Below, piece by piece: positions 793-56,022 of a DNA stretch of 64,000 bases. How positions within the stretch are numbered: position 1 is the stretch's first letter; every line of letters begins with the position of its first letter. A model generated the notes under the pieces. The model did no database searches. It saw nothing but the letters and a program-made list of their open reading frames with translations, and was not told the origin of the DNA. The position numbers and the translations under genes were made by a program. The DNA lies in NCBI GenBank assembly GCA_000165345.1, contig CM000436.1, positions 704,001 through 768,000 of the forward strand, given 5' to 3'.

Positions 793-2079
793 ATGAGGCA
801 GTATTCTCCTATAGATATTGCACTAGATGATGACCTATTTTACTCTTTTAGGATATCTATGGGTATATTTGACTCGTTAATTTCCAAAGATGAAGAGGAA
901 AAGGTCAAACGTATATTTCAGAATAAGAAATCCTTAAAGGTTAATGATATTGACTTATACAGACAAGGTTTTTTGAAGAAAATTGATTTAGGTGAAAATG
1001 ATCTGACTTCTGAGGTGTTTACAGAAACCAATAATTTTCTGTCCTGTATTGGGAAACTTGACGATGAATTTATACATCTTCTATTTCAGTTTAGTGAAAT
1101 AATCATATTGGATAATTCTAGTTCAAAACTAGTGTTGGCTGTGAATGAATCAATTTCATATAATTCAGGTATAGATGAAAGTTGCGAATGCAAAGTTTTA
1201 CCCATAAACTCTTCAATATTTGGTTTTGTAGATTATATTGATACGAGAAATGATACCATAAAAAGTTTTATATCCAAATTTAATAAGAAAATGTTTGACT
1301 CATCCCCATTCTTAGATAATAAACATAAACACAATAAAAATGAATTTATTACATATATTAAACTCCTCCTCAGAGTTTCATTTATAAAATCGATTTGTCT
1401 TTTAAAAATGTACGGGAAAAAACTTCCGATTTATTTGTTTGATGGAAGTCAGCTATTAATTAAAATTGAACCGATATTTAATTCTTTGAATGAGAACTGT
1501 ATGATTTCGTACAAAGTGATTGATGGGCAAATAGATTCATCAATAGTGAAGGTAGATTTAGATTACTACCAATTCAAATGGTTTCATTCATGGAAAAAAA
1601 TGCTTAGGAACTCAAGTGGCTATTTATTCCCTCACAAAAATAGCATGTCTCAATTTCTACCGAATAAAAAACTGTGTTTGCAAAACACCAACAACTTTGA
1701 ACACACTTTAACCCCATTAAGAAAATCCTTATCTAATTTGAATTATGAGGATTCAAATTTTAGTCCTAATAATGAAAAACCAAGTAAAAAAACGTCCAAA
1801 TCTAATCAAGTTCACACGCAAAACAAAGATATTGATACTGAAGAAGAAAATGATAGTTCCTTGAAAACAAATGATGAAAGCAATCCTAATTCTCCATCTT
1901 TGTCCAAGACGACTAATGACGTTATAAACGAATTGCTAAATAAGCCCAACCCTAATATACAATCTTCTAAACAAAAAAAAAAGAGATCTAAACAAAGTGA
2001 ATCTTCAGATATTGAAAATTCCCAAGACTACGTGGATAAATTGATTCAACAACAAACAATGCAGCTCTTTAACCTTTAA
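793..2079 (+). CDS. hypothetical protein, Lys/Ser/Asn-rich C-terminal half (no recognisable domain)
   Basis: ORF track 757..2079 (TTG start); first ATG at 793 (MRQYSPIDIAL...); long low-complexity basic tail. Confidence 0.55.
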   Translation: MRQYSPIDIALDDDLFYSFRISMGIFDSLISKDEEEKVKRIFQNKKSLKVNDIDLYRQGFLKKIDLGENDLTSEVFTETNNFLSCIGKLDDEFIHLLFQFSEIIILDNSSSKLVLAVNESISYNSGIDESCECKVLPINSSIFGFVDYIDTRNDTIKSFISKFNKKMFDSSPFLDNKHKHNKNEFITYIKLLLRVSFIKSICLLKMYGKKLPIYLFDGSQLLIKIEPIFNSLNENCMISYKVIDGQIDSSIVKVDLDYYQFKWFHSWKKMLRNSSGYLFPHKNSMSQFLPNKKLCLQNTNNFEHTLTPLRKSLSNLNYEDSNFSPNNEKPSKKTSKSNQVHTQNKDIDTEEENDSSLKTNDESNPNSPSLSKTTNDVINELLNKPNPNIQSSKQKKKRSKQSESSDIENSQDYVDKLIQQQTMQLFNL

Positions 2080-2323
2080 AATATTTAAAAACTACCAAAA
2101 TACAATCTTAACACTTTTTTGTCAGTTATGTTTAACCAAAATTCCATCTTGATTACTTTAAACTGCATTGTCTTATTGCATGTATTATTAATTAATTTGA
2201 TGCCCCCCATTATGTAAATATTATAACTTATCTCGAACAAAAGTTCAAAGAAGTAGAAATAAATATAATAGATAAACATGATTAATTTACTAGTATTTTC
2301 AAGGTATCTTGTTAAATGTAAAA

Positions 2324-4420
2324 ATGGGTTTTAATATTTTTTTTCTTGGGATTTGTATCTCAATATTAATATTCTCCATAAGCGGCGTAAAATGTAGATT
2401 ATACTATGAAGATAATTTACTTGTTACTGATGAAGAATACGATGTAATTATTATTGGAGCAGGAGTTTCAGGCTGTTCAATGGCTAATGTTTATGCTAAT
2501 AATGGGAAAAAGGTTCTCCTTTTAGAAAGAGGTGGGCCAAGAGAGAAACATCCAAAAACCTTATTGACAAAGGGAGCTCCAGGAGTAATCACAGATGAAT
2601 CTATAAGTGAAGCTATTACGACATCAAACGGAACTCTGATGAATGTTGCAAACATTGTTGGAGGTGGGGCCAGTATTAATGGAGGATTTTATGTTGAACC
2701 ATCTACAGAATTTATGCGCAAAACTATTGAAAGCAGCGGTGCTACGTTTGATCAAGAGAAATACCTAAATGCAAAGGAAATTATTCGTAACTCAGGTATT
2801 TTAAACACCGACAACCGTCTCGAAGATAACACTTTTCCAAAAGCAATGTTTGAGGCTATGAAAAATATTAAAGAGTACTCTGGAAATGTTAGCGAAGTTC
2901 CTATTTATTATCCTGAAGGAAGTAATACATTTGTTACTGTTTCCCAGTTTAACGAAACAAATAGGTCATCAGCAGATATTCTTCTTTCTCATGAAAATAT
3001 AAAAATTTACCCCTATGCAGTTGTAGAATCCATACAGTTTAACACGACGGATGAAAACCGTGATCCGTATAGCTTAAAAAAGAAAGTAACTGCTCAATGC
3101 ATTTTGGGAAGAATGAGGTCCGAAAGTGATGGTTTTGTAAGTGTAAGTTCTGGAATGACACATAGAACTATTTATAACAATAATGGCCCTAAGTTCAAAA
3201 TTTGTCTCAATAAACCTGATTCATTTATCGTTCTTGCTTCAGGTGCTATTTACAGTCCTGCGATACTTATGAAAAGTGGTATTGGCCCAACTGAAGTTCT
3301 TAGAAAGCATGGCATTCCTCCAATTAAAATTCTAGAACAAGTTGGTAAAAATTATCATGATCATTTACAATTCGGTTTGTTTGGAATTTTGAAAGAAAAG
3401 CAGCCTATGTCTATTCAAAAAGTATATAGTTATAGCAATTGTTCAAAATATTATCCAGATCCTCCTAATATTTATGATGAACTCAGTCTATTCCACCATA
3501 AGGAGTCTGAACAAAAAAATGGTAGTTCAACTCTTTCTAAAAATTCGTTTGATTTACTACTAGAACCAATTTTAAGTAACCCCGAATCGCCATTGTTTGT
3601 TCCACCGGAACCAACTGGGCCACAATACGAAGATGGAAATTGCTACTCTACAATACTGAACGAAGTTTCTGGAGAATTGTGGATTCCTTTTGCAATATCT
3701 CAAATAATTTATAGAAAGTCTAAAGTTTTAATGAATCCTCTCTTGAATTATCTTTCTCTTTCACTTAGGACCAAAATTCTTAATGCTTTGGAAAGCAATA
3801 ATACAAGAATTTCTGATGATGGTTTTAATAAAATGTTACAGCCTATGAATGATTGTTTTGAAAATGGATCAGCCGCATTATCCTTCCTTACAATACCAAA
3901 GAGTAGAGGATCAATCACTCTAGACGAGATGGGACTCCCAGAAATTAATAGTTCAGACTTTTCAGATCCCATGGATGTTGAGGCAGCAATTGTTGGAATG
4001 AAACACTTAATTCAAGTAATGACTTCACAAAGTGTCTCCTCAATTCTTGAGAGTGAATTGAACTCATGTATCGCATCTATTAGAAATATTTGGGATTCTT
4101 TCCCATTGTTTGGAGGAATCAACGAGAATAATGTTATTGGATTTTCTTCAAGAGAACAAAATGTACCAGCTCTTATTCCCCCTCTACCGAAGATTATAAA
4201 TGATAAAACAGCATTTGATATGGTTAAGGAGTCTTACTCAACAATTTGGCACCCAACCGGTACCTGTTCATTAGGTTCTGTTGTTGATAGTGATTTTAAC
4301 GTGAGAGGGACTACAAATTTGAAAATAGGTGATGCATCTATTTTCCCCGAAGTTTCAGATGTAAGCCCACTTGGATCAGTATTTCTTTTGGCAACGTATA
4401 TTGCTTTAGTAACATCTTAA
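2324..4420 (+). CDS. secreted GMC (glucose-methanol-choline) family FAD oxidoreductase
   Basis: ORF 2309..4420 begins at TTG; ATG at 2324 gives a hydrophobic signal-peptide-like N-terminus MGFNIFFLGICISILIFSISGVKC. N-terminal FAD fold YDVIIIGAGVSGCSMA...LLLERGG. C-terminal GMC signature region WHPTGTCSLGSVVD...GDASIFP. Many NxS/T sequons. Confidence 0.85.
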   Translation: MGFNIFFLGICISILIFSISGVKCRLYYEDNLLVTDEEYDVIIIGAGVSGCSMANVYANNGKKVLLLERGGPREKHPKTLLTKGAPGVITDESISEAITTSNGTLMNVANIVGGGASINGGFYVEPSTEFMRKTIESSGATFDQEKYLNAKEIIRNSGILNTDNRLEDNTFPKAMFEAMKNIKEYSGNVSEVPIYYPEGSNTFVTVSQFNETNRSSADILLSHENIKIYPYAVVESIQFNTTDENRDPYSLKKKVTAQCILGRMRSESDGFVSVSSGMTHRTIYNNNGPKFKICLNKPDSFIVLASGAIYSPAILMKSGIGPTEVLRKHGIPPIKILEQVGKNYHDHLQFGLFGILKEKQPMSIQKVYSYSNCSKYYPDPPNIYDELSLFHHKESEQKNGSSTLSKNSFDLLLEPILSNPESPLFVPPEPTGPQYEDGNCYSTILNEVSGELWIPFAISQIIYRKSKVLMNPLLNYLSLSLRTKILNALESNNTRISDDGFNKMLQPMNDCFENGSAALSFLTIPKSRGSITLDEMGLPEINSSDFSDPMDVEAAIVGMKHLIQVMTSQSVSSILESELNSCIASIRNIWDSFPLFGGINENNVIGFSSREQNVPALIPPLPKIINDKTAFDMVKESYSTIWHPTGTCSLGSVVDSDFNVRGTTNLKIGDASIFPEVSDVSPLGSVFLLATYIALVTS

Positions 4421-4665: not shown

Positions 4666-5562
4666 ATGAAAAATTTGAAATATAAATTTCTTTTATTTAT
4701 TGCAATTAGTCTTTTGTTTATTTCTAAAGTTAAGAGCAGCCGTATAATCTATTTAGATGAAAATGCAACAAGACTAGAAAGTAATGCAACTGAACCTATA
4801 TCTAACAATAAATTTCCATATCTTCCTAATATTAGTAATGATACTTTTAATAATATGCAAGAGAATATTATTAAAGCAGTTGTCGGATTCGATAGCTTTA
4901 TCTTCGATATTGCTAAAAATATTACAAGCGGAATGAGAATAGCACAATTTTTCATTTTAAACAAGACGAAGACTTTTATTCTTCCATTTGTTATGTTTCC
5001 AGACGAAAAAAGTTTTGAAAATTTTAAAAATTCTACTTCGAATGAGACAGAAGTTGACAATCTCAAGTTAGAGAAACTTTTTCCAATAAATATTAATTTA
5101 CTAAGTCCTAACAAAAGTAATTTCACAAATTCCACTCTTGAAGAAACTTTAATTAAACCTGAAATGCTCATTCCATATCTGAGAGGTAGTCACAAAACGA
5201 TAAGATACAATGACACAACAAATGAAAATTTAAAGAATTTTACAACTGTAAATTCAACGGATGATTCAGAAAAAATAATCAATTCAACATTGATCCGGCT
5301 GAATAAGTACTTATTAACACCAAATAATGGTTCATTGAACATAAATAATCAAACAAGTAGACTTAGATTTCTTCAGTTTACTTCAGCTTATGGATTAGAA
5401 GATATTAGTGATCAGCAATTTGGACAAGATTTAAATTATTTAGATGGAATCCCAAATGTAGGAGGTATTTCTTCATTTGCTCAAGATTATGATCAGTGGA
5501 TACCTTCTAATAATTTCGATTTTTATAATGGTTACGGATTTGACTTTTTGTTCATGGAATGA
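4666..5562 (+). CDS. secreted, heavily N-glycosylation-sequon-rich protein (function unknown)
   Basis: ORF 4594..5562 (GTG start); ATG at 4666 gives signal-peptide-like MKNLKYKFLLFIAISLLFISKVKSS; more than 15 NxS/T sequons; no known domain. Confidence 0.6.
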   Translation: MKNLKYKFLLFIAISLLFISKVKSSRIIYLDENATRLESNATEPISNNKFPYLPNISNDTFNNMQENIIKAVVGFDSFIFDIAKNITSGMRIAQFFILNKTKTFILPFVMFPDEKSFENFKNSTSNETEVDNLKLEKLFPININLLSPNKSNFTNSTLEETLIKPEMLIPYLRGSHKTIRYNDTTNENLKNFTTVNSTDDSEKIINSTLIRLNKYLLTPNNGSLNINNQTSRLRFLQFTSAYGLEDISDQQFGQDLNYLDGIPNVGGISSFAQDYDQWIPSNNFDFYNGYGFDFLFME

Positions 5563-6407: not shown

Positions 6408-6624
6408 CTAATTAGATTTTAATGAAATTAAATTATGATTTTAGAAATAAAACAAGCAAAAAAATAAATTAAAACTTTAAGATTTTAACTTATTCGTATT
6501 TTATTTGAAAAATAAAAATGTTTTGAAGGCGCTGTAATATAATTCAGTTAAAATTAAAACTAAATGAATTTGTAAATAGGTTAATCAAAGAGATAAGATA
6601 TGATTTTGGAGATTGCTCATAAAT

Positions 6625-8046
6625 ATGGGTGTTATAAAAAGAACTCAGGTATTGATTGTTGGGATGGGCCCCGTAGGTATGACATTAAGCAATTTGCTTA
6701 ATTTATATAAAGTCGACAATATTATTGTTGACAAATTGACACAATTTTCGCCTATTCCAAAAGCCCACTACATTTCAAATCGCTCAATGGAGATATTTAG
6801 ATTCTGTAACAACTTAGATCAAGAAATATATAGGCTTCAACAACCTTTAGAATTTTGGAGAAGAATAACTTATCTAACTTATTTTAATAACTGCAAATTT
6901 GGTATTTTAGGAACTAAAGATGAATTCAGTAATTATAAGACAATTAATGGTTACTACTTAGATTTGGATAGCCAATCAGGAGTGGCAAATTATGATCAAA
7001 GCAAACTAAATAATTTATTGTACAAAAATTTGAAACAGTGTAAATATTCGCAGATAATGCTTGGAACATCTTGGAAAGGATATGAATTTGTTTCTAAAAG
7101 TGGAAAAGAAAAGGTAATTTCAAAGTTAGAGAAATCAAATTCAAATTTGGAATTTACTATAGAGAGCGATTTTTTAGTGGGAGCGGATGGAGCAAAGAGC
7201 CAGGTAAGGAAAGCTTTAAATAAAAATTTTAAAGGGCATGAATCTCTTCAAAAACTTCTAAATATTAATTTTATCTCAAAAGATTTGGCAAAAGTTTGTC
7301 TGGAACTCAAGCAAGAAATTATTGATGAGTGTAATAATATTAAATTAGTTCCCACCACAAGTATGTTATACTTTATTCTAAATCCAAGTTTAATAGGCGT
7401 AATGGTACTTCACGATATTAGTCAAGGCAACTTCGTGATCCATATTCCTTTAGTTGGTTCAAGCTCCGAGAAATTTGATTTAGATTTTTTTAAGCATATT
7501 TTCCCAAGTTTAATTAGCCAAGTATGCAAGAAAAACATTAATTTAGAGGTAAAATCTATTGAAACATGGAATATGTCAGCTCAAGTACTTGATTCGTTTG
7601 TTGATGAAAAAACAAATCGAATAGTTTTAATAGGAGATTCTGCTCATAGACTTCCCCCATCTGGAGGATTTGGGATGAATTTAGGAATTCAAGATTCCCT
7701 TAACTTAGCATGGAGATTAGCATTTGTATTAAAAAACAAATACGAAGAAGATATTAAAAAACAATTGAATGAGTTTAACATGGAGAGAATCCAACATGCG
7801 CAATATGCCTGTAATAACTCTATTCGGAATTTTTATAGGTCCCTATTTATTCCTAAAGCTATCGGATTGGACTGGAAAATAATATCTAGTATGCAGAAGT
7901 TAATATCTAATGCCGATAAATATATTCCTAATAAAATTTTAGAAGAGAAACCAGTCATGGATTACATTTATAAGTTAGGAATGTTTAGATTTTCAAAAAT
8001 ACTAAGGAATGAAAATAAAATGGAAAAGATAAAGATGCTTATTCAG
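6625..8046 (+). CDS. FAD-dependent aromatic-ring monooxygenase (PHBH/phenol-hydroxylase family), exon 1 of 3
   Basis: GxGxxG Rossmann VLIVGMGPVGMTLSNLL; VGADGAKSQVRKAL (DG motif); LIGDSAHRLPPSGGFGMNLGIQDSLNLAWRLA (GD motif). Reading frame ends at donor CAG|GTTAGT (8047) in phase 0. Confidence 0.8.
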
Positions 8047-8091
8047 GTTAGTTTAGTACTCCAGCTATATTAATATAAAACACTTTTTTAG

Positions 8092-8372
8092 GGATATATT
8101 AATTCAAGGGAAAATTCTTTATCTATCAACTTCAAAGGTCTTGATCTTGCATATGCATATAACTTTAATGCAGGAAATACAAAAGCATCTTTTGTGGCTC
8201 CAAAATCGCCGTTTAATTATTCCCCAAATACTTTACTAGGAATGAGAATCCCTCATGAATATGTTTATTTTCAAAGCCTAGATAAAATATTCAGAATCTC
8301 AACAGTAGACATTCCAATTGTATTTTCAGAAAGAGAGCCAAAGAATGTAATACTGATGTTTAGTGAAAAAAG
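8092..8372 (+). CDS. FAD monooxygenase exon 2 (after a 45-nt intron 8047..8091)
   Basis: Acceptor TTTTTTAG|GGA in phase 0. Exon encodes ...APKSPFNYSPNTLLGMRIPHEYVYF... (GxRxPH motif typical of this family) and merges with track ORF 8194..8376. Ends at donor AG|GTAAGC. Confidence 0.55.
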
Positions 8373-8420
8373 GTAAGCAAAAAAAAGTATTACACAAAAA
8401 TTATTTGACTAAAAAATTAG

Positions 8421-8712
8421 TCTCGATAAAGTTAGAAAAACTTTTCCGAATCACGTTGTTGTATTTTGGACGTTAAAAAATGAAATCAATCAAAGTCAAT
8501 CAAAAATTTACACAAATCTAGAAATTTTGCCAACTGGAAAAATTAATAAAATTTGGACCTCAAAGCAGGTTAGAGAAAAATATTTGGAGAAATTGAATAA
8601 TATAAACAAAAATTCTATAATAAAAAATTATCGAGAACTAAATTTAAAAGATTTAGATAATTTATTTTTTGAAATTAGACCAGATGGTCATATAAAAAAT
8701 ATAGGATGCTAA
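8421..8712 (+). CDS. FAD monooxygenase exon 3 (after a 48-nt intron 8373..8420)
   Basis: Acceptor AAAAAATTAG|T completes codon AG+T in phase. Frame merges with track ORF 8527..8712 and ends ...FFEIRPDGHIKNIGC*, restoring the family-typical C-terminal RPDG motif. Confidence 0.55.
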
Positions 8713-10316
8713 GCTTCAACATTCTTAGGAGGCATTTTTTTTAGCAAACTTAATATTTCATTACCAAGTGTGAGTGATTTTTGAAGCGCAATATTAAGAT
8801 CTCCTTTACTATTAGTTTCCATCCAACCAGTTTTAAAAATAGGACAGGGAAAACAATTATTTTCAAATGAATAATCTTTATTTCCATTAAAAATATAATC
8901 ATATTTTGGTTTGAATCCCAATGATGTGATCAATAATTGGCAAGGTAAATAATATTTCTCCTTCTCATTTAACTTTGTTTTATCAGTAATTGGTTTAGAA
9001 TCACGAATATTTCTCGCTAATTCTATTCCTTTGATAAACGGGATTGATTTTTTTTTCACATTATTCTCTGGAATATTGACTTCTTCAGTTTTAATATTTA
9101 CAGTAGAGAAGAGGTTTTTAAAATGTATGTTTATTGTTTTATCATTATGGAATATGTTATCATTATTGGCTATGTATTCTTGGTGATTATTAACCATTTC
9201 CTGAAATATAGACTTCATTTTCAAAAATCTTCTTTTTATTTCTGGTCCGCTTCTTTCTAATTCGAATAAGCTAGTTCGGTCCTGTGAAAGCTCAAAATCT
9301 TCTTGAGACATCATTACTCTGATATTCATTCCATTAGTAGAATTGTATTTTGATTTCCTAGACTTATCAATAAATTCCTTTAATAATGGATATTTAAAGG
9401 AATTTTGAATCCAACCTCTCCGTCCAATAATAAATATGTTTTTGAACAAAGGTCGATAGATATCGGAGTTTGAATATTTAGATGATGTGTCAATTAAATT
9501 TAAATAATCAGGATTCAAATATTTGTTTTTTGAAAGTTGTTCATGGGTATAGAAAGATAAAAGTCTAGTAATATCCAATGAAACATTGCCATTTCCAATG
9601 ATAACCGCATTCCTCTCACTGGAGTTTAATATATAATTTCTAAGTATATCAGAACCATATCCATATTTAAAGTCTTCATTTTCGTTTTTAAATGGGACGC
9701 TAATTTCAGTAGAAGATAAAGGACTCTTATATTCAAAAAATTGATTGTTTTTTTTTTTAAGGTAATTCAACTCTATATCCATATCAATTCTCTCATTATC
9801 AATAAGTTTATTATTGATCGAATTAGAGTGTTCATTTTTTGTTGGATATAGCATTTTTTTAAACATTGGGTGGCTATTATAATAAAACACCCAATCTCTA
9901 GAAGAAAATACTCCTCCTATAATTTTATTCTGTAATTCATTATTCATATATTTCACTGGAAGAGTATGGAAACTTTGTAATCCACCAACTGCTAAAACCA
10001 CTACATCGTATTTCCTCTTTAATTCTTCTAATTTAACATCATATCCCAAAGTCACATTTCCATAGAATTTAATATCATCAGAATATTTTTTAAAAAGAGA
10101 GTTATCAATACTAGAAATCGATTTTTTTAGATCATGTCTATCTGGTGCAATTCCATATCTGAGTAGCCCAAATGGTTTATCTAAGGAATCTAATAAATCT
10201 ATTTTGATTGCAATGTTTTCCTTTTTTGATCTTGCCAGCAAATATTTGGCCAAGTAACAACCTGATGGGCCTGCACCAACAATACATAACTTATATATTG
10301 GCTTGTAAGGTCTCAT
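8709..10316 (-). CDS. adrenodoxin reductase-like ferredoxin-NADP(+) reductase (Arh1/FDXR family)
   Basis: ORF 8709..10406 (TTG); ATG at 10316 gives MRPYKPIYKLCIVGAGPSGCYLAKYLL then GLLRYGIAPDRHDLK, matching FDXR N-terminal signatures. Second NAD(P) fold AVIIGNGNVSLD. 3' end overlaps the monooxygenase stop by 4 nt. Confidence 0.75.
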   Translation of the reverse strand: MRPYKPIYKLCIVGAGPSGCYLAKYLLARSKKENIAIKIDLLDSLDKPFGLLRYGIAPDRHDLKKSISSIDNSLFKKYSDDIKFYGNVTLGYDVKLEELKRKYDVVVLAVGGLQSFHTLPVKYMNNELQNKIIGGVFSSRDWVFYYNSHPMFKKMLYPTKNEHSNSINNKLIDNERIDMDIELNYLKKKNNQFFEYKSPLSSTEISVPFKNENEDFKYGYGSDILRNYILNSSERNAVIIGNGNVSLDITRLLSFYTHEQLSKNKYLNPDYLNLIDTSSKYSNSDIYRPLFKNIFIIGRRGWIQNSFKYPLLKEFIDKSRKSKYNSTNGMNIRVMMSQEDFELSQDRTSLFELERSGPEIKRRFLKMKSIFQEMVNNHQEYIANNDNIFHNDKTINIHFKNLFSTVNIKTEEVNIPENNVKKKSIPFIKGIELARNIRDSKPITDKTKLNEKEKYYLPCQLLITSLGFKPKYDYIFNGNKDYSFENNCFPCPIFKTGWMETNSKGDLNIALQKSLTLGNEILSLLKKMPPKNVEA

Positions 10317-24869: not shown

Positions 24870-25049
24870 ATGACTCATATTAAGTCAAAAATAACAGGAA
24901 TGATAATTGAAACTAGTAATCAGGCAGGAAACAACTCACCAATGTCTCTAGAAGATCCAGATGAACCATCTCCTTCACCAATAAATCCAATTACTCTTAA
25001 GCACACTCTTAGACTTGCTTCAAGAGTAAGTATTTCGAATAATGCTAAG
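24870..25049 (+). CDS. hypothetical basic/acidic low-complexity protein, exon 1 of 2
   Basis: ATG at 24870. In-frame donor AAG|GTAAGT at 25050 (an alternative in-frame donor AGA|GTAAGT lies at 25026); both are phase 0. Confidence 0.45.
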
Positions 25050-25110
25050 GTAAGTCAAAAAAATTTAGTTGACGCGTTTATTTTAATTATTAAAATGATA
25101 AAACTTTTAG

Positions 25111-25785
25111 ATTGAAGAAAAATATTTTGAAGAATATCCTAATTCATCTTTGCTTACAGAACTTGGCGAGACTTTGAAGGCGATTTCAGTCAATGATTTT
25201 TCATTTTCTCCATCTCCAACAAAGTTATCTAAACTACCAGAAGATACAGAAGCTAAATTTATAAAGTCAATATTACCTAAAAGTAATTATAGAGAAAAGG
25301 TAAAGAAGTCTCAAAAGTTGTGCAAAAAAAATAATAGAAGGTCAAAGCTTGAGGAGGAAAAAACAAAGAAACATATCAGAAAAGATTCGCTAAATGAAAA
25401 CATTGAATGTTGCGAAATATTTGATTTAAATGTTCAAGAAACTGCTGGCGAAGTTGAAATCCAAAGTTATGAGAGTATATTGGGTCAAACTATAAATAAA
25501 TCTCAGTCTACCGATGGAAAAGAAACAAATGATTCAGAAATTAAAAAATCCACTCCATTATCATTCGGGAGTAATGAATCATTCAGATATTCGAGATGGA
25601 TAAAAAAAAATAGTATTAAAAATTTCATTAGTAGGTATATACCAAGGTTCTTGATTCCTGCATTTAAGGCAATCGAAAATTTAAGGATAAAATTTGCAAT
25701 TCCAACAAAAATAGTAGAATATCGACGAGAAGTAGGGCAAAAAAAAGAAAAAGTAAAAAAGAAAATAAAGCTCAAGAGGAAATAA
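25111..25785 (+). CDS. same gene, exon 2 (after a 61- or 85-nt intron)
   Basis: Acceptor CTTTTAG|ATT at 25110/25111 follows an in-frame TAG. Frame runs open from 25111 (IEEKYFEEYPNSS...) into track ORF 25150..25785, whose annotated start is a TTG. Lys-rich C-terminus KKEKVKKKIKLKRK. Confidence 0.45.
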   Translation: MEEKYFEEYPNSSLLTELGETLKAISVNDFSFSPSPTKLSKLPEDTEAKFIKSILPKSNYREKVKKSQKLCKKNNRRSKLEEEKTKKHIRKDSLNENIECCEIFDLNVQETAGEVEIQSYESILGQTINKSQSTDGKETNDSEIKKSTPLSFGSNESFRYSRWIKKNSIKNFISRYIPRFLIPAFKAIENLRIKFAIPTKIVEYRREVGQKKEKVKKKIKLKRK

Positions 25786-25920
25786 TTTAGGACAAGAACC
25801 CGCCTATAGTTGGAAATCGAAGTCCTTAATAACTGATAATTAGAATAGAAGAGGCTGAAACTATTACATAGTTTGCTGATAGCAAAGAATTCCAACTATT
25901 TAGTTTATCCAGCTTTATGT

Positions 25921-29847
<3,927 letters not shown>

Positions 29848-30053: not shown

Positions 30054-30411
30054 ATGTACCTGGATAAGAAAATACTATATTGGTGTACAATTCCCGTTAC
30101 CATATTAGTTTTTTGTGGAGTTATTTTAAGAACAATTCTTCAAACATCCTCGCAAAAAAAGAAAAAGAAAAGGTTGCCTTTTAAGAATGAGAAAAATTTG
30201 AATGATTGCTTGATGTCCACTCAACGCGTGTCTTTGAGAAATCAAGAGTTCCAAAATCACCTCAATAGGAGTGCATTAATAAGGTCTAGAAGATTTTTAA
30301 TTCCAGAAGATTCATTTTTGAAAAGAAAGCTGTTTTATTGTGAACTAGAGAGTGGATATTTTCATAACTCTCCAGAATCTCCAAGCCCATTGGCTGCACT
30401 CTCAAACCCAG
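30054..30411 (+). CDS. small multi-pass membrane protein, exon 1
   Basis: ATG at 30054. Hydrophobic ILYWCTIPVTILVFCGVIL then basic linker. Donor CCAG|GTATGT at 30412 (phase 1). Confidence 0.45.
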
Positions 30412-30480
30412 GTATGTTTACGTGCTTAATTCTTATGACTTCATAATTTTTCAACAATTTAGACCACTCTGCACTTACAG

Positions 30481-30791
30481 ATATGATGAAAAACCAATTT
30501 GGGTTTCTGATTTTGAATGGAGGGATGGGATACTTAGTCAACACATTATTTTCGGGATTTCTAGTTGTTTATATTCCTTTCCCACTTTCTTATTCATTTA
30601 AGGGAATGCTTCAAAGAGGAATAGAATCAAATCCAAATATAAGCGCCTCATTTTTGTCAGCTCTATCATTTTATTTCATTGCATTACTCTGTTGTGGAGA
30701 GGTTGTTCATCTTTTCCTTTCTATTATTGGGTTTGAAGGAGTTTCAGGTCCGCAAATTGATCTACCAATGATGAATCAGCAAGGTAAGTAA
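30481..30791 (+). CDS. same gene, exon 2 (after a 69-nt intron 30412..30480)
   Basis: Acceptor CACTTACAG|AT. G+AT completes codon GAT and joins track ORF 30483..30791 in frame (hydrophobic ...FLILNGGMGYLVNTLFSGFLVVYIPF... SFYFIALLCCGEVVHLFLSIIGF). The stop TAA is embedded in CAAG|GTAAGT, so a further downstream exon is possible. Confidence 0.4.
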
Positions 30792-31176
30792 ATCATAAAA
30801 TTTTCTTAAAAAAAAAAATTTGCCGTAGTTTCTCCTCTGGGGAATCAAACAGATTACTCTAAGCTCTTTAAAGAAGAGGTAGAGTCATTACAGATTACTG
30901 TAAGTTTTTGATAGATAATTGCAAGGCATTTTAACTTAAATTTACCTACAGCCAATAGAATGCGCGCTAGACCAAATGGAAGAGATGGCAATAAAACTGC
31001 TAGAAATTTGAGTTAACGTGTACACGGATTGAATTGCTCTATTTTTCGTGTGCTAGTTAACGAATTTTTTAATTGCTATAAAATACTAACCTATTTCTGT
31101 TTTAACCCCGTTGAATTTTAAAAGCTTCCAAATAACTTTTGAATTGGTGTTTTTTGGATTCAATTGCATGTATAAT

Positions 31177-55758: not shown

Positions 55759-55853
55759 TCAATTTTTTAGCATTGTATCTTTTTTTTCATCGTTGTACAT
55801 AGGGTCTCCAGAGTCAATACTAGGCTCCTGCTCGCATATTGTGCCTTCTTCAC
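55759..55853 (-). CDS. same mini-gene, exon 2 (after a 45-nt intron 55854..55898)
   Basis: Acceptor CCTTTAG|GT. Continues GEEGTICEQEPSIDSGDPMYNDEKKDTMLKN*. An acidic stretch follows NWG, as in SERBP1 (NWGTVKDE). Confidence 0.45.
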
Positions 55854-55898
55854 CTAAAGGCTTATAATTCAGGTCAAGTTATTTCAAATTTCACTTAC

Positions 55899-56022
55899 CC
55901 CAGTTATATTTACCTGAGCCTCCTTTAATACCAGATTTATTTCCATATGCAGAGCTCTTTGGGTTCATACTATGACGGTCTAGTCTAGTATCCTTGTCAT
56001 GTTTCGGCTTGGAATGCGTCAT
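55899..56022 (-). CDS. SERBP1/HABP4/Stm1-like mini-protein (72 aa), exon 1; not in ORF track
   Basis: Minus-strand ATG at 56022. Encodes MTHSKPKHDKDTRLDRHSMNPKSSAYGNKSGIKGGSGKYNW(G), carrying the family signature DRHS...KGGSGKxNWG. Donor TGGG|GTAAGT (phase 1). Confidence 0.5.

Follow-up and report, generated by a model that had tools for sequence, protein, structure and literature searches.

Positions 6625 to 8712 on the plus strand of a 64,000-nucleotide (nt) stretch of Cryptosporidium parvum chromosome 8 (assembly GCA_000165345.1, contig CM000436.1, positions 704,001 to 768,000; this whole stretch is called the window below) very probably form a single three-exon gene with two short spliceosomal introns, encoding a 664-residue group A flavoprotein monooxygenase that is the Cryptosporidium ortholog of CoqF/TgCoqFMO. 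In plants, algae, and apicomplexans, CoqF is a flavin adenine dinucleotide (FAD)-dependent hydroxylase that takes the place of Coq7, a di-iron enzyme. The present analysis shows how the gene divides into exons and introns, that this division is conserved throughout the genus, how the product folds, and the clade to which it belongs. The three-exon model is correct but already known, since GenBank holds the exact protein over the exact range for this assembly.

Splicing of the monooxygenase gene

The long open reading frame (ORF) at this locus extends from 6613 to 8073, and its first ATG lies at 6625. The junctions of intron 1 read CAG/GTTAGT at 8046/8047 and TTTTTTAG/GGA at 8091/8092, and those of intron 2 read AG/GTAAGC at 8372/8373 and AAAAAATTAG/T at 8420/8421 (Table 1). 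An earlier reading of the bare sequence (the original prediction) had named these donors and acceptors and proposed that splicing at them keeps phase, and both proposals hold at exactly these positions. Joining the exons (1422 + 281 + 292 = 1995 nt) yields one open frame of 664 codons followed by TAA, and the product is, residue for residue, the deposited protein WRK34025.1, in agreement with the three-exon model with 45- and 48-nt introns that had been put forward. The small mechanical ORFs that the original prediction had joined to the long one, 8194..8376 (GTG start) and 8527..8712 (TTG start), are the inner parts of exons 2 and 3. Its choice of a longer protein was right, but both of its lengths needed correction: the figures of about 668 and 486 amino acids (aa) become 664 aa spliced and 482 aa unspliced when counted from the ATG. 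The value 486 counts from a TTG, which would not serve as a start in a eukaryote.

Both splice boundaries match the U2-type rule (GTTAGT...TAG and GTAAGC...TAG), and the introns are lower in G+C (24% and 19%) than exons 1 and 2 (30 to 31%). Exon 3 keeps 97 open codons within DNA of 23.6% G+C, and its openness, in C. parvum and in the other species, is far beyond chance. The junctions are gap-free when the spliced protein is aligned with those of C. andersoni, Vitrella, and bacterial homologs. Ten other frame-keeping GT/GC-AG pairs per junction were considered and rejected; they have poorer donors, are not conserved, and delete residues that align gap-free to orthologs.

Table 1. Exons and introns of the monooxygenase gene, followed by other genes of the window (window positions).
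Feature	Position	Strand	Details
Exon 1	6625..8046	+	1422 nt, aa 1-474, FAD-binding and substrate domains, phase 0 end at CAG/GT
Intron 1	8047..8091	+	45 nt, phase 0, GTTAGT...TTTTTTAG, 24% G+C, in-frame stops TAA and TAG
Exon 2	8092..8372	+	281 nt, aa 475-567 and two bases of codon 568, C-terminal domain begins
Intron 2	8373..8420	+	48 nt, phase 2, GTAAGC...AAAAAATTAG, 19% G+C, two in-frame TAA
Exon 3	8421..8712	+	292 nt, last base of codon 568 to aa 664, TAA 8710-8712; finishes C-terminal domain
Adrenodoxin/ferredoxin reductase (Arh1/FprA) homolog	8709-10316	-	535 aa, 1cjc E=2e-22; convergent neighbor
EMC3/TMCO1-family gene	30054-31011	+	introns 30412-30462 (51 nt), 30784-30828 (45 nt), 30904-30958 (55 nt)
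72-aa gene	55759-56022	-	one 45-nt intron, 55854-55898

Conservation across Cryptosporidium and the deposited models

The C. parvum introns each have a length divisible by three. The exons consequently lie in a single genomic frame, which runs from 6625 to 8712 uninterrupted except by four stop codons. Could the gene be translated without splicing, with the in-frame stops read through or with TAA and TAG used as sense codons? Orthologous loci were compared from C. hominis 30976, another C. parvum strain, C. andersoni, C. canis, the chipmunk genotype, and two further species represented by sequencing runs. Neither the codon position nor the phase of either intron (0 for intron 1 and 2 for intron 2) changes in any of these seven loci. 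The lengths of intron 1 are 45, 45, 45, 45, 44, and 95 nt; the intestinal species all have 45 nt, C. canis has 44 nt, and C. andersoni has 95 nt. Intron 2 spans 48 nt in C. parvum, 49 nt in C. hominis, and 78 nt in C. andersoni; C. canis has 47 nt, and three further intestinal species have 44, 43, and 45 nt. Many of these lengths are not divisible by three, and the exons accordingly fall in different frames in C. hominis, C. canis, the chipmunk genotype, sequencing run SRR31861040, and C. andersoni, each of which has at least one intron of this kind. These frame differences exclude readthrough or a variant code and require splicing. Moreover, the C. parvum gene ends in TAA and its neighbors in TAG or TAA, as in the standard code, and the intron sequences gain insertions and deletions and have only 19 to 24% G+C. 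We therefore give an unspliced gene practically no chance. A ciliate-type genetic code or stop readthrough was rejected on the frame changes in other species.

The orthologous introns are GT-AG, with the exception of intron 2 of C. canis (GCAAGT...AG). This intron (locus positions 4751-4797) would be GC-AG at the conserved position; a 29-nt GT-AG alternative would shift the junction. The annotated 574-aa protein of C. canis runs into intron 2 and misses exon 3. For C. hominis 30976 (GCA_001483515.1; locus positions 1501-3600), the conserved junctions give 664 aa, compared with 568 aa in the deposited model; its exon 3 is out of frame with exon 2 because intron 2 has 49 nt, with one extra A in an A-run. 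Applied to the other species, the conserved junctions yield proteins of 661 to 665 aa and, in C. andersoni, the already annotated 738 aa. The spliced Cryptosporidium proteins align without gaps at both junctions, and six species have their start codon at an equivalent position.

The chipmunk locus is an exception, with frameshifts in exons 1 and 2 such that the spliced frame breaks at codon 279. In this assembly (GCA_004936735.2), exon 1 carries a 7-nt tandem duplication (TATGCTC TATGCTC; locus positions ~3737-3744) and exon 2 a frame-shifting 1-nt deletion (locus position ~4710). The deposited 547-aa model skips the duplication and stops at the deletion. These frameshifts reflect either an assembly error or a decaying gene. 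Exon 3 is intact in the chipmunk genotype, and its ratio of nonsynonymous to synonymous substitution rates (dN/dS) relative to C. parvum is 0.16.

Exon 3 deserves separate scrutiny. A gene of two exons would encode a 568-aa protein ending in ...MFSEKR, with 8421-8712 untranslated or noncoding. This 568-aa form is the one found in most current GenBank annotations, and the models of C. canis and the chipmunk genotype are truncated in a similar way. In addition, exon 3 is the least conserved exon: its identity to the other intestinal species is 44 to 50%, compared with 70 to 81% for exons 1 and 2 (74 to 81% for exon 2 taken separately). Nevertheless, exon 3 is open in all six of the other Cryptosporidium loci (in the chipmunk genotype this holds for exon 3 alone). 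Its dN/dS is 0.16 to 0.37, compared with 0.09 to 0.14 for exons 1 and 2 (exon 2, 0.10 to 0.14), indicating that exon 3 is under purifying selection despite its weaker conservation. It also ends in an invariant RPDGH strand that completes the domain found in all homologs and solved structures, and both annotations that drew on RNA evidence include it. A gene ending with exon 2 is thus highly improbable.

The first of these two annotations contains WRK34025.1 ("FAD-binding domain containing protein," C. parvum), which an exact-sequence look-up returned as identical to the 664-aa product. Its gene lies on CP141125.1 (GCA_035232765.1), and its span of 2088 nt equals window positions 6625..8712. 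Comparison of the window with CP141125.1 (IOWA-BGF chromosome 8) revealed 0 mismatches over the 18,712 nt compared. The models of this CpBGF telomere-to-telomere genome were manually curated with PacBio Iso-Seq and stranded RNA sequencing (RNA-seq) (PMC12179316). In the second annotation, QOY40027.1 (IOWA-ATCC, CP044415.1, locus positions 1501-3552; 653 aa) uses the same two junctions, and the introns of that annotation are stated to be 100% supported by RNA-seq (PMC8744675). QOY40027.1 is flagged as partial and ends 11 codons before the stop. Its convergent neighbor begins 33 nt further on, and the model may have been shortened so that the coding sequences would not overlap.

Models of the locus are otherwise unevenly spread, as read from the protein's 90%-identity cluster. 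Most public Cryptosporidium annotations (482 to 574 aa) lack exon 3 or both exons 2 and 3. Intron-free models of 482 to 489 aa are represented by EAK89698.1/XP_627170.1 (the 2004 reference, 489 aa) and by C. hominis TU502 and UdeA01 (482 aa). Models of 568 aa that contain only intron 1 include several from C. hominis and those of C. tyzzeri, Cryptosporidium sp. 43IA8, the recent C. parvum KAL5367005.1, and WKS79524.1. Exon 3 is likewise missing from the 574-aa model of C. canis and the 547-aa model of the chipmunk genotype, both of which end before it. Exon 3 has been overlooked often, probably because of its weaker conservation and the abutting neighbor gene. The supplements of the C. proliferans paper contain no mention of the monooxygenase gene.

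Under the mechanism that we propose, the primary transcript would be spliced at the two canonical GT-AG introns, and no mRNA other than the fully spliced one would link the FAD and substrate domains of exon 1 to an entire C-terminal thioredoxin-like domain made from exons 2 and 3. If intron 1 were retained, 474 native residues would be followed by an 8-residue tail (482 aa); if intron 2 were retained, the product would end after 568 residues. In either case, the retained intron would introduce an in-frame stop and leave a product without the complete C-terminal domain and its invariant residues. Might introns be retained frequently enough to produce the 482- or 568-aa isoforms beside the full-length protein? 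The in-frame stops in both introns do define such truncated products, and annotators with RNA data arrived at three different models. We consider this unlikely, since the truncated products would be without the invariant C-terminal residues and the differing models are more simply explained by carry-over of older annotations.

Fold of the product and kinship with CoqF

The spliced protein carries the fingerprints of its superfamily. Pfam FAD_binding_3 (PF01494) matches aa 6-396 (E=4.4e-56; 191 bits against a cut-off of 22). The GxGxxG motif is GMGPVG (aa 13-18, nt 6661-6678), the DG motif is GADGAKS (aa 186-192, with D188-G189 at nt 7186-7191), and the GD motif is GDSAHRLPPSGGFGMNLGIQD (GDSAH...GIQD; aa 337-357, nt 7633-7695). 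A catalytic-type histidine, His48, is encoded in exon 1 (nt 6766-6768). Among 56 homologs, D188, G189, G337, and D338 are invariant.

What do exons 2 and 3 add? Exon 2 contains LGMRIPHEY (GMRIPH at nt 8239-8256), and exon 3 contains FEIRPDGHI (RPDGH at nt 8677-8691). The original prediction had argued from the gain of these GxRxPH and RPDG motifs upon splicing that the exons are real, and the 56-homolog alignment supports that argument: G524 (in LGMRIPH) and, within RPDG, R654 and D656 show no variation, and P528 and P655 show almost none. Collinearity with homologs through the C terminus was seen with the profile of this alignment, which matches the solved three-domain hydroxylases PieE, RebC, HbpA, GrhO5, and RdmE end to end: the matches begin at position 5 and reach position 550-552 of the 555 in the profile, and both GsRlPH and RPDGH are aligned in them.

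An AlphaFold model built on the alignment has a mean predicted local distance difference test score (pLDDT) of 83 and a predicted template modeling score (pTM) of 0.89. Confidence is high for aa 520-586 and 650-664, with a pLDDT of 93 over aa 651-660 and 82 over aa 661-664. When the model was compared with the PDB, the best matches were the three-domain enzymes PieE and HbpA, and also RebC, all matched from end to end over approximately 670 to 680 alignment columns with target-normalized template modeling scores (TM-scores) of 0.76 to 0.81.

Within the C-terminal domain, aa 587-642 (8476-8643) form an Asn/Lys-rich stretch of approximately 55 residues that aligns poorly beyond the genus and is even longer in C. 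andersoni. This stretch looks like a lineage-specific insertion.

The three-domain fold, in which the C-terminal domain is thioredoxin-like and classed in Pfam as PF21274 or PF07976, is common to the C. parvum protein and to PieE (6u0p), HbpA (4cy6, 5brt), RebC (2r0c), RdmE (3ihg), and TfdB, as are the GxGxxG, DG, and GD motifs and the C-terminal GxRxPH and RPDG. Identity to these enzymes is only 18 to 25%, and the insertion of about 55 residues at aa 587-642 is on the Cryptosporidium side. PHBH (1pbe), Coq6, UbiH, UbiF, and UbiI share the FAD-binding fold and fingerprints, and PHBH matches aa 253-367 at approximately E=6e-8, but these enzymes, of about 390 to 510 residues, have no counterpart of the C-terminal domain specified by exons 2 and 3. 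Assignment to a PHBH or phenol-hydroxylase type holds at the level of the superfamily; the closest relatives are eukaryotic CoqF proteins rather than MhpA or PheA.

Beyond the genus, the best-matching relatives came from Vitrella and other eukaryotes. The Vitrella protein in turn is related to Chromera, Besnoitia, and land-plant and algal proteins about 700 aa long. The plant and coccidian members were reached only by the Vitrella-seeded search; a 12-sequence eukaryotic alignment used as a second homology query returned essentially the same candidates as before and no plant or coccidian proteins. By BLASTP, the C. parvum protein scored 240 to 268 bits with plant and Vitrella proteins, 110 to 144 bits with bacterial 2,4-dichlorophenol-type enzymes, and 70 bits with MhpA. 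In a neighbor-joining tree, Cryptosporidium shared a branch with Vitrella, Chromera, and Besnoitia (bootstrap 82%). The scores and the tree both place the protein in the eukaryotic "cluster I" of Xu et al. 2021 and outside the bacterial and fungal "cluster II." The homology search turned up a single gene cluster of this kind for C. parvum.

Arabidopsis CoqF (AtCoqF; At1g24340, Q8GYJ7) is a ubiquinone C6-hydroxylase that stands in for Coq7; about 226 of its 709 aa make up a C-terminal extension, and C. parvum is among the CoqF-holding apicomplexans listed in the same study (Xu et al. 2021, PMC8654299). TgCoqFMO (TGGT1_232540) is essential and mitochondrial, and both C5 and C6 hydroxylation have been proposed for it (Baierna et al. 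2026, PMC13369981). Like the Cryptosporidium protein, CoqF/TgCoqFMO are group A flavin monooxygenases with a long C-terminal extension. A CoqF-like extension is present in C. parvum only in the three-exon model (aa 475-664 plus the preceding helices). The equivalent of AtCoqF His88 is kept as H48, in an AH(Y/F) column that is invariant in our alignment A2 and aligns with H48 of HbpA, and the top similarity of the C. parvum protein is to the plant, chromerid, and coccidian members. The coccidian member is far longer (1189 aa in Besnoitia versus 664 aa in C. parvum). Similarity and tree together point to the C. parvum protein being, by descent, the Cryptosporidium ortholog of CoqF.

Several observations weigh against this identification or against parts of the model. 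First, the RNA support for both junctions consists of statements of published annotations. Second, Phe121 of AtCoqF is reported to be important for activity, and Phe121 and the presequence are regarded as traits that created CoqF function (Xu et al. 2021, PMC8654299); Cryptosporidium differs from CoqF/TgCoqFMO in both. The Phe121 position, fixed by a 33-residue spacing from the His, is Ile81 (6865-6867) in all Cryptosporidium sequences; the column reads W-R-x-F-x-Y in plants, algae, chromerids, Besnoitia, and a ciliate and WRRI(T/S)Y in Cryptosporidium. Only 12 residues precede the GxGxxG motif, which starts at residue 13, and this leaves no room for a mitochondrial presequence, although no targeting predictor was applied and a mitosomal import signal of another kind may be present. 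Third, the mapping of Phe283 is ambiguous (MLFFIFN in plants versus MLYFILN in C. parvum, with inconsistent plant numbering); its counterpart is either F250, in the column of HbpA Trp225, which would match, or L252, which would not. Fourth, aa 587-642, encoded in exon 3, have a pLDDT below 50. Finally, PF21274 (Rng_hyd_C) gave no match, only noise, to the C-terminal 190 to 242 residues of the C. parvum protein at E<=10, nor any match to the C-terminal region of C. andersoni at that threshold, and one relative (P0008) reached 24.3 bits relative to a cut-off of 27.5. The Cryptosporidium C-terminal domain is too divergent or too interrupted for this Pfam model, and its assignment consequently rests on the profile, the invariant residues, and the fold.

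Could the protein instead be a xenobiotic or phenolic hydroxylase of the TfdB, HbpA, MhpA, or PheA kind, acting outside the ubiquinone pathway? Such a role would fit its legacy name, "phenol 2-monooxygenase like," the solved structures that match it best (PieE, deposited as 2,4-dichlorophenol 6-monooxygenase, and HbpA), the Ile in place of Phe121, and the absent targeting extension. We give little credence to this possibility. The bit scores to the eukaryotic CoqF clade are about twice those to the bacterial phenol-type homologs, and the tree puts the protein inside the myzozoan CoqF branch. The structural matches can only be to enzymes of "cluster II," because there is no solved CoqF structure; the bacterial and fungal enzymes of this cluster gave no ubiF complementation (Xu et al. 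2021, PMC8654299). Furthermore, published work describes Cryptosporidium as retaining ubiquinone synthesis and includes it among the holders of CoqF.

As a CoqF ortholog, the full-length enzyme would hydroxylate the ubiquinone ring at C6, in Coq7's place; the Toxoplasma counterpart probably also acts at C5. Demethoxy-ubiquinone would be its presumed substrate, and the enzyme would be expected to act in or at the mitosome. A role as a ubiquinone hydroxylase would fit the reported retention of ubiquinone synthesis in C. parvum. C. ubiquitum has lost this pathway.

Neighboring genes, consequences, and intron sizes

The monooxygenase gene and its convergent neighbor, a homolog of Arh1/FprA (Table 1), overlap tail to tail by 4 nt of coding sequence (8709-8712), with the TAA of the monooxygenase at 8710-8712 on the plus strand and the TAG of the reductase at 8709-8711 on the minus strand. 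In Toxoplasma, an Arh1 homolog was coenriched with TgCoqFMO in Coq5 proximity labeling. The adjacency of the two genes in C. parvum may be coincidental.

A tentative and rather doubtful extension of the CoqF assignment is that the Cryptosporidium ortholog is a remodeled enzyme rather than a plain copy, in view of Ile81, the missing presequence, the genus-specific C-terminal insertion, and the overlap with the Arh1 gene. If this were so, its regiospecificity could differ (for example, C5 plus C6, as proposed for Toxoplasma), or it could act outside the mitosome, and the truncated public models would have hidden its full domain structure from drug-target studies. The Ile in place of Phe121 and the absent presequence are minor peculiarities that can be tested.

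As a discovery the gene model carries little weight, because GenBank already has it in its correct form for this assembly. What remains of value is an annotation warning for other Cryptosporidium genomes and a more precise functional label. CoqF/CoqFMO has been promoted as a parasite-specific drug target, and in most public Cryptosporidium protein sets the protein is short by 96 to 182 residues; among these sets are the 2004 reference, a 2025 C. parvum annotation, and those of C. hominis, C. tyzzeri, C. canis, and the chipmunk genotype. Since these truncated models lack the invariant RPDG strand, modeling, phylogeny, and expression constructs based on them would be wrong.

Are introns of this size exceptional? 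Within 10 kb on either side of the monooxygenase gene, all other genes are intron-free. Further along the plus strand of the window, a 1547-aa gene of another C. parvum annotation (24870-29847) spans 4978 nt, which implies 334 nt of introns; more than 200 solutions for their positions fit the sequence. Four other introns of the window, those of the EMC3/TMCO1-family gene and of the 72-aa gene (Table 1), were deduced from the annotated product lengths and GT-AG boundaries, and the set of the EMC3-family gene is the unique solution that fits its annotated product length. The published mean intron of C. parvum is 84 to 99 nt, and the 1364 introns of the IOWA-ATCC annotation average 87 nt, the shortest being 31 nt. 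The original prediction had placed introns of 45 to 48 nt at the short end for this kind of genome. They do lie below the 87-nt mean, but they are not unusually short, as the window holds four more of 45 to 55 nt; such lengths look like the usual short class.

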